Source: a virus (Duplodnaviria > Heunggongvirae > Uroviricota > Caudoviricetes). From it: 5,362 bases of DNA. Position numbers and translations under genes: made by a program. How positions within the stretch are numbered: the first letter of the stretch is position 1; each line of letters opens with the position of its first letter. The notes beneath the pieces were generated by a model, which made no database searches, was not told where the DNA came from, and worked only from the letters and a program-made list of their open reading frames with translations. Of the stretch, positions 2,079-2,551 are shown one piece after another. The DNA lies in the IMG/VR virus record IMGVR_UViG_2617270946_000017. The stretch is one strand, 5' to 3'.

Positions 2079-2333
2079 TTACATCATGGTACTGTCAGTT
2101 CCGGGCTGAGCCGGGTCTGGTTGCTCTGGCTGCGCGTCGGTTTTCGGCTCATTATCAGCATCACTGGCCGCAACTGCTGGCCCAATAAGTTTTGCCAGCA
2201 CTTCATCAACGTAAGTGTCGATTTGTGCCTCAAAATCCTTGCGGACCTGCGCTTTCAGCAACTTATTTACTTCACCGGAATACAGTGCCTGTTTTACCAG
2301 GTCTTCAGTGACGGTGCCTTTAATTTCTGGCAT
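2079..2333 (-). CDS. Hypothetical small acidic protein, 84 aa (helical N-terminal part, Asp/Glu/Pro-rich C-terminal tail)
   Basis: ATG at 2333 preceded by a near-consensus SD AAGGAGG with 7-nt spacing. About 16 acidic versus 8 basic residues. Lies 35 nt downstream of the 60-aa ORF, suggesting a two-gene operon. Confidence 0.6.
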   Translation of the reverse strand: MPEIKGTVTEDLVKQALYSGEVNKLLKAQVRKDFEAQIDTYVDEVLAKLIGPAVAASDADNEPKTDAQPEQPDPAQPGTDSTMM

Positions 2334-2368
2334 GTATATCCTCCTTATGCGGGAATAAAGCCCTGCAA

Positions 2369-2551
2369 TCAGGGCTGGGTCGGGTCTTTTGGGAGCGGAG
2401 TTACCTGCGCTGTTTTACTGAGTTTTTCAGCTGCTGCGTCCTCAATTTTGCGGCGAACATAATTTCTGATGGCCTTATAACCACCACTCACCAGATATAA
2501 CGCACATACTGCCGTGCAGAAATACAATAAAATAAGCTGTAAAAATGTCAT
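2369..2551 (-). CDS. Hypothetical small membrane protein, 60 aa (one predicted N-terminal transmembrane helix followed by a basic/charged tail)
   Basis: ATG at 2551 preceded by GGAGGG (3-nt spacing). Residues 2-24 (TFLQLILLYFCTAVCALYLVSGG) are hydrophobic, followed by YKAIRNYVRRKIED.... The six-frame call starting at 2563 uses an upstream TTG; the ATG with SD is preferred. Confidence 0.55.
   Translation of the reverse strand: MTFLQLILLYFCTAVCALYLVSGGYKAIRNYVRRKIEDAAAEKLSKTAQVTPLPKDPTQP

Follow-up and report, generated by a model that had tools for sequence, protein, structure and literature searches.

A DUF1378-DUF826 gene pair behind a NanS-p-like esterase gene in a Mu-like prophage of Escherichia coli

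The gene pair described here has its closest counterpart in Shiga toxin-converting phages. A published study notes DUF1378 and DUF826 genes in Stx2a phages, where they separate nanS-p from the holin gene, and gives them no function; it also places the pair in the late region of Stx phages (PMC10462455). The late operon of these phages runs stx2AB, esterase, DUF1378, DUF826, S, R. Literature searches returned nothing else on the two domains together, one further match for the pair being a typing error for DUF1738, and nothing that cites their Pfam accessions, PF07125 and PF05696.

A second described arrangement concerns the space directly behind the esterase gene. PasA and PasC of enteropathogenic E. 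coli (EPEC) E2348/69 are validated Hfq-binding small RNAs (sRNAs) whose genes lie on the opposite strand, in the gap from a prophage esterase gene to its neighbor (PMC8550237; 10.64898/2026.05.13.724894). PasC ends 2 nt after the esterase stop codon (PMC8550237 table S6, Pearl Mizrahi 2021; Zhu, Shabalina and Storz 2026, preprint 10.64898/2026.05.13.724894).

The nanS-p block at the end of a Mu-like prophage

The window, meaning the whole 5,362-nt stretch analyzed, covers the right end of a Mu-like E. coli prophage, with the phage genes running leftward on the minus strand (Table 1). Positions 1-335 belong to the host and form the 3' portion of malX (PTS maltose IICB), a stretch found in 5,418 of the 5,426 complete genomes. 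The prophage end begins at position 336 with TG, directly after the malX sequence, and the prophage thus sits inside malX. In no complete genome with this prophage end does the insertion lie in malX; the same 5 kb occupies other chromosomal sites in 22 complete genomes, a variety expected of a transposing phage. The full Mu-type cassette is found in 24 of the 5,426 complete E. coli genomes and related copies in 495, and Mu-like carriers are already among the sequenced DNAs, with O157:H7 genomes and LC727881 as examples. A megablast search of phage genomes with the cassette came back empty.

Table 1. Features of the window, with positions counted from its first nucleotide
Feature	Position	Strand	Basis or remark
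gin-type invertase gene	4695-5267	-	ORF and family calls
NanS-p-like sialate O-acetylesterase gene, 637 aa	2696..4609	-	Pfam PF03629 (SASA) and PF20350 (DUF6645); synteny in 187 loci
Candidate sRNA gene, ~75 nt	about 2578..2690	+	in the 144-nt spacer from esterase stop to DUF1378 start
Candidate sRNA, T7 run	2682-2688	+	ends 8 nt from the esterase stop codon
Candidate sRNA, terminator stem, 10-bp GC	2647-2656/2672-2681	+	hairpin
Candidate sRNA, -10 TAAAAA	2602-2607	+	promoter-like box
Candidate sRNA, -35 TTGACA	2578-2583	+	18-nt spacer to -10
Shine-Dalgarno GGGAGGG of DUF1378 gene	2555..2561	-	3 nt before ATG; read from sequence
DUF1378 gene, 60 aa	2369..2551	-	ATG at 2551, stop ends at 2369; Pfam PF07125, phrog_494
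Shine-Dalgarno AAGGAGG of DUF826 gene	2340..2346	-	6 nt before ATG; read from sequence
DUF826 gene, 84 aa	2079..2333	-	ATG at 2333, stop ends at 2079; Pfam PF05696, phrog_311
Orphan 97-aa ORF (ORF97)	1618-1911	+	between DUF826 gene and com; AAGAGG ribosome-binding site
com	1161-1361	-	ORF and family calls
mom	470-1207	-	ORF and family calls

In phage Mu, gin and com lie 94 nt apart; in the window they are separated by 3,333 nt, which marks the esterase gene, DUF1378, DUF826 and ORF97 as an inserted accessory block. A sequence-only reading of this DNA had assigned the pair to a phage accessory region, in agreement with the position of the block between gin and com/mom.

The wider distribution of the block was followed in 187 loci gathered from IMG/VR, phage records and genomes, with neighbors scored by tblastn. 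The order NanS-p-like esterase, DUF1378, DUF826 is nearly always kept across these loci, which fall on two unrelated phage backbones. About 125 are lambdoid and read (stx2B), esterase, DUF1378, DUF826, class II holin, lysozyme; about 55 are Mu-like and read gin, esterase, DUF1378, DUF826, (ORF97), com, mom. The gene order in the window, with a SASA/DUF6645 esterase, DUF1378 and DUF826 on one strand, is that of the nanS-p block of lambdoid/Stx prophages, placed here between gin and com/mom and not, as there, downstream of Q/pR' and immediately before holin and endolysin genes. The few loci without an esterase gene begin at a contig end, and DUF1378 and DUF826 in Escherichia loci are found only directly downstream of the esterase gene. 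Among distant members of DUF826, L195 belongs to another Mu-like prophage, one without gin, L196 has a different holin family downstream, and L198 has the classic DUF1737-SASA-DUF6645 lambdoid arrangement. The pair is the 3' part of a mobile accessory block of E. coli and Shigella prophages, comprising the esterase gene, an opposite-strand sRNA candidate, DUF1378 and DUF826, and the block in the window has been captured by a Mu-like prophage.

Compared with the 684-aa form found in other genomes, the esterase gene of the window is 141 nt shorter and misses residues 532-578 (47 aa). This deletion near 3014-3017 is in frame, lies between two Leu-Leu dipeptides inside the C-terminal DUF6645, and leaves the SASA catalytic part intact. 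At the other end of the block, ORF97 has no Pfam, PHROG, NCBIfam or PADLOC match, and only about 17 Mu-like loci carry it, the other Mu-like loci being without it. Upstream of com, at 1400-1432, a palindromic pair of ATCGATCGA motifs (GATC sites) is flagged as a hairpin by a terminator scan; the pair recalls the Dam/OxyR-controlled mom regulatory region of Mu.

Other carriers vary around the same block. In LC727881, a Mu-like phage inside an Stx2c phage, com is followed by a 350-aa protein in place of Mom (L003, 7237-8289); this protein resembles a C5 cytosine DNA methyltransferase, and the esterase, DUF1378 and DUF826 genes are unchanged. In E. coli O157:H7 F8798 (L200, 1635-7650), a Mu-like prophage bearing the cassette interrupts the esterase gene of a lambdoid prophage, and the truncated lambdoid esterase gene, followed by holin and lysozyme genes, stands directly beside mom. 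Two versions of the esterase block thereby lie within 6 kb, a hint at how the block could move between phage types.

One account of this linkage is that the pair helps the esterase, a NanS-p-like enzyme without a signal peptide, by tethering it, regulating it or aiding its release. Such a job would explain why the three genes always travel together, and it fits both the strict position of the pair in Escherichia, directly downstream of the esterase gene on both backbones, and the layout of the three genes on one strand with short spacers. The enzyme evidently does not need the pair, however, since the EPEC prophages PP2 and PP5 carry the esterase gene without it, and recombinant NanS-p is reportedly active alone in the studies of Saile and Feuerbaum. 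A DUF826-like gene in Pantoea also has no esterase gene nearby, and neither protein has a domain that suggests protein export. A helper role is therefore quite unlikely in our estimate. The strict linkage itself could equally reflect a job connected with the esterase or hitch-hiking within one mobile block.

Two narrow protein families

The sequence-only reading had started from two ORFs with strong Shine-Dalgarno sequences, separated by 35 nt. Both are found as described, on the minus strand, with 35 nt between the DUF1378 stop codon and the DUF826 start codon. Both are real genes under purifying selection: homologous ORFs are intact in 185 of the 187 related loci for DUF1378 and in 180 for DUF826, and pairwise dN/dS against diverged copies (dS up to ~2) is 0.14-0.32 and 0.10-0.46, respectively. 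The same reading had found no recognizable family for either product, and this does not hold. The 60-aa protein matches Pfam DUF1378 (PF07125) with 109.4 bits against a cut-off of 25 (E 9e-32), residues 1-58 aligning to model positions 1-58 of 59, and it also matches phrog_494. For the 84-aa protein, the match to Pfam DUF826 (PF05696) reaches 58.7 bits against a cut-off of 25 (E 6e-16), with residues 1-57 on model positions 1-58 of 75, and the match to phrog_311 is full length (E 5e-28). RefSeq proteins identical to both products are already named DUF1378 and DUF826.

Both families are narrow. A profile search with DUF1378 gathers 262 clusters at 90% identity, none of them from outside Escherichia, Shigella and Citrobacter, and those clusters with a source name are labeled DUF1378. 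An exhaustive profile search with DUF826 yields 42 clusters at 50% identity among 1.84 billion representatives. Searches for wider context gave no match, either for the DUF1378 profile in genome contigs or for the long-tailed DUF826 group in viral and metagenome contigs. Within these narrow families the copies have diverged considerably: Mu-type proteins are 52% (DUF1378) and 36% (DUF826) identical to those of Stx2 phage II. Such identities across backbones suggest that the Mu-type and Stx-type lineages are old, that both have retained the genes, and that the pair has long been kept in Mu-like phages, away from any holin gene.

The DUF1378 protein is basic (pI 9.3), with a charge of about +3.8 in its C-terminal half. 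Its Kyte-Doolittle maximum over 19 residues is 2.27 at residues 3-21, and AlphaFold2 models one helix at residues 3-50, so that hydropathy, charge and model agree with the earlier prediction of a single-pass membrane protein with a basic tail. The alignment has 19 invariant positions, 13 of them within residues 1-25 (LYF, LYL and SGGY included), which suggests that the membrane helix is more than a greasy anchor. All 52 variants carry a charge of +2 to +4 after the helix and no positive charge before it, and an N-out/C-in topology is predicted from this distribution. DUF1378 is accordingly modeled as a bitopic inner-membrane protein, with a predicted transmembrane helix at about residues 3-24, a periplasmic N-terminus, a basic helix in the cytoplasm and a Pro-rich disordered end. 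A class II (S21-type) pinholin or TMD2-like protein was considered and rejected: hhalign against the holins of the same loci gives 0.7% probability, and a single transmembrane helix is predicted.

The DUF826 protein is acidic (pI 4.2, net charge -8.5), and about -6 of this charge lies in residues 53-84, which contain seven Pro and many Asp and Glu. AlphaFold2 places helices at residues 10-17 and 20 to ~52 with high confidence and gives the tail pLDDT below 50, consistent with the disordered Asp/Glu/Pro-rich C-terminus proposed from the sequence. Conservation covers about the first 52 residues. Over 58 unique homologues the tail is 27-49 residues long, variable in sequence and always acidic, with a mean charge of -8.2, and in 56 of the 58 it ends in a Met/Leu-rich tip (STMM, VMML, GTML, EMMM), STMM in the window. 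Such a tail resembles a flexible acidic tether that carries a short motif at its C-terminal end. As a whole, DUF826 is predicted to be a cytoplasmic protein, an amphipathic helix followed by a flexible acidic tail with a Met/Leu tip.

A relative in a Pantoea stewartii prophage departs from this plan. The 75-aa DUF826-like protein (L192, 5950-6177) has a 17-aa hydrophobic and aromatic N-terminal extension (MWIKDWLFSRK...) and may reach the membrane without a separate anchor. Its gene lies about 900 nt after a holin/endolysin/spanin cassette, with no DUF1378 gene and no esterase gene nearby.

The acidity of DUF826 had raised the idea of an anti-restriction DNA mimic of the Ocr/ArdA kind. A net charge of -8.5 in only 84 aa fits this idea, as does the com/mom neighborhood in the window. 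The charge is nevertheless in the wrong place, since the predicted folded part, a single long helix, carries only about -2.5 and most of the acidity lies in the variable, predicted disordered tail and not on a folded DNA-like surface. DUF826 matches no Ocr/ArdA family in Pfam or the PDB, Foldseek finds no structural match to those proteins and nothing in the PDB for the DUF826 model, and lysis genes, not anti-restriction genes, adjoin DUF826 in most loci. DNA mimicry is very improbable.

A candidate small RNA on the opposite strand

The spacer between the esterase and DUF1378 genes holds a candidate sRNA gene on the plus strand, with promoter-like boxes, a GC-rich stem and a T-run (Table 1); the RNA itself would span 2614-2690. 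A box resembling TTGAC(A/T), 16-27 nt from the DUF1378 start codon, and a strong hairpin with a T-run abutting the esterase stop codon occur in 168 of 182 loci, even though the sequence between box and hairpin is of several unrelated-looking types. The stem is 92% paired, double changes at five of eight pairs were reached in none of 500 shuffles, and the element of the window folds with a z-score of -4.17. A covariance model built from 28 elements (R1) detects the candidate on the right strand and in the right place in two loci on which it had not been trained. The candidate lies at least 27 nt upstream of the DUF1378 start codon and overlaps neither the ribosome-binding site nor the ORF. It would pair solely with a read-through 5' leader and not with the DUF1378 ribosome-binding site or ORF.

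PasA and PasC share with the candidate their position, their orientation, a similar size (about 75-85 nt) and an intrinsic terminator that abuts the esterase stop codon, but their loci lack DUF1378 and DUF826. Model R1 finds no match (E up to 1) at the PasA and PasC coordinates, which makes the element of the window a positional analogue and not a member of their family. In EPEC E2348/69 prophage PP2 (L004, 2465-2700), the gap between esterase and holin genes is taken up not by DUF1378 and DUF826, as in other prophages, but by two tandem PasA-like units, each showing an A-run and a GC hairpin on the gene strand. A 9-codon ORF preceded by a Shine-Dalgarno sequence follows these units, and then a terminator on the same strand. 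Assignment of the candidate to Esr41 was likewise rejected: the Rfam match at 2608-2690 (+) is full length, with 22 bits against a gathering threshold of 102 (E 0.68), and because Esr41 is encoded on SpLE1 and not in this context, the match is probably a terminator artefact.

The sRNA candidate enters into the reading of the pair as a defense or addiction module of the lysogen. Under that reading, DUF1378 would be a membrane-active toxin or exclusion protein and DUF826 a labile antidote or regulator, its acidic tail and hydrophobic tip serving as a protease tag, while the divergent sRNA would add type-I-like control comparable to that of tisB/istR-1, zorO/orzO and shoB/ohsC. Several features are in keeping with this scheme. 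DUF1378 is small, hydrophobic and, as predicted, single-pass, with the membrane helix its most conserved part; the sRNA-like gene directly upstream is divergent and conserved and shows complete complementarity to the upstream portion of any read-through mRNA; the disordered tail of DUF826 keeps its nonpolar tip; and the block occupies an accessory region beside the anti-restriction gene mom.

Other findings weigh against it. The sequence-only reading had linked the pair to toxin-antitoxin (TA), abortive-infection or superinfection-exclusion modules, and searches of PADLOC, NCBIfam, Pfam, PDB sequences and, for the DUF826 model, structures with Foldseek do not bear this link out. In PADLOC-DB 2.0, DUF1378 has no match and DUF826 only a 12.9-bit stretch to PbeC (E 0.0076); NCBIfam gives nothing near its cut-offs for either protein; no TA family in Pfam, NCBIfam or PADLOC matches either; and profiles of both proteins retrieve only insignificant matches among PDB sequences. 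DUF826, predicted to be one long helix with a disordered tail, lacks the DNA-binding domain of a type II TA antitoxin, and the pair has no conserved gene-strand promoter of its own. The sRNA candidate is clear of the DUF1378 ribosome-binding site and ORF, and the validated PasA and PasC occur in prophages without DUF1378 and DUF826 and act in trans. The pair is never away from the esterase gene in Escherichia, which is unusual for an autonomous addiction module. Finally, lambdoid phages have the pair behind the esterase gene within their Q-dependent late region, which speaks for a role in the lytic phase over a defense expressed in the lysogen. A defense or addiction module is thus unlikely, and the pair is probably not a TA, exclusion or DNA-mimic module of the lysogen.

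A possible late role at the inner membrane

The arrangement of the genes suggests a different role. The spacer hairpin, read on the gene strand, has its homopolymer run before and not after the stem, and no same-strand promoter is conserved there. With neither a same-strand terminator nor a conserved promoter in the spacer, we infer that the esterase, DUF1378 and DUF826 would be made together from one transcript, which in lambdoid phages would be the Q-dependent late transcript. Co-expression of the pair, as the sequence-only reading had proposed, is probable for the same reasons, the two genes being on one strand with no same-strand terminator or conserved promoter between them. The simplest reading of these neighboring genes, one for a basic helix anchored in the membrane and the other for an acidic, soluble helical protein, is that their products form a membrane-tethered complex, and the charges of the two tails are opposite (+2 to +4 over the 52 DUF1378 variants, against a mean of -8.2 for DUF826). 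DUF1378 and DUF826 probably work as such a complex, to judge from sequence features and models. The complex would probably act from the cytoplasmic side of the inner membrane, at a late stage of the lytic cycle, and it may adjust the membrane step of lysis or release where phages use signal-anchor-release (SAR) endolysins.

We tentatively favor this reading of the pair as a late-acting inner-membrane accessory that may tune lysis or release, while holding it somewhat less probable than even. In Stx2 phage II, the lysozyme encoded beside the pair has a hydrophobic segment at its N-terminus, and we take it to be of the R21 SAR type. Mu gp22 is likewise a SAR endolysin. Both backbones use SAR-type endolysins. 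Against it, the pair lies far from the lysis genes in Mu-like prophages, and the Pantoea DUF826-like gene, which has no DUF1378 partner, stands beside a non-SAR endolysin.

A bolder variant joins the membrane pair and the sRNA candidate into a three-part switch, with DUF1378 as the membrane-active effector, DUF826 as its tethered cytoplasmic partner and the opposite-strand sRNA setting their levels. The acidic tail and Met/Leu tip of DUF826 may then function as a degron, or else as a host-protein decoy, and the switch may time the membrane breach by prophages that reside next to Shiga toxin genes, or poison the cell when control is lost. We regard this switch as improbable.

The function of the pair is a modest question, and the genes are already annotated members of their families. 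The pair nonetheless lies between Shiga toxin/esterase and lysis genes in most Stx-converting phages, across several hundred complete E. coli genomes, and if the pair affects the timing of lysis or release, it would bear on the amount of toxin and esterase liberated by enterohemorrhagic E. coli (EHEC). The range of hypotheses is narrowed by the pair staying with the esterase gene even in Mu-like phages, and by the conserved antisense sRNA candidate gene that abuts it.

Among characterized systems, the T4 RI/RIII antiholins and CptA/CptB, a membrane toxin with a small acidic antidote, offer functional analogies. What they share with the pair is that a phage or mobile element encodes together a small membrane protein and a small, soluble, helical partner about 80 aa long. 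T4 RI differs in that DUF1378, by its predicted topology, is without a periplasmic domain; no sequence relationship of the pair to RI/RIII or CptA/CptB was detected, nor homology to any characterized protein. The pair of Stx-converting phages (Stx2 phage II, 933W group) stands much closer, with the same families in the same order, the same upstream esterase gene and spacers of 35-40 nt, and it differs from the pair of the window in phage backbone, in the neighboring genes and in the protein divergence given above. What the window holds is not a new kind of system but the already catalogued DUF1378-DUF826 pair, two uncharacterized families in a known arrangement.
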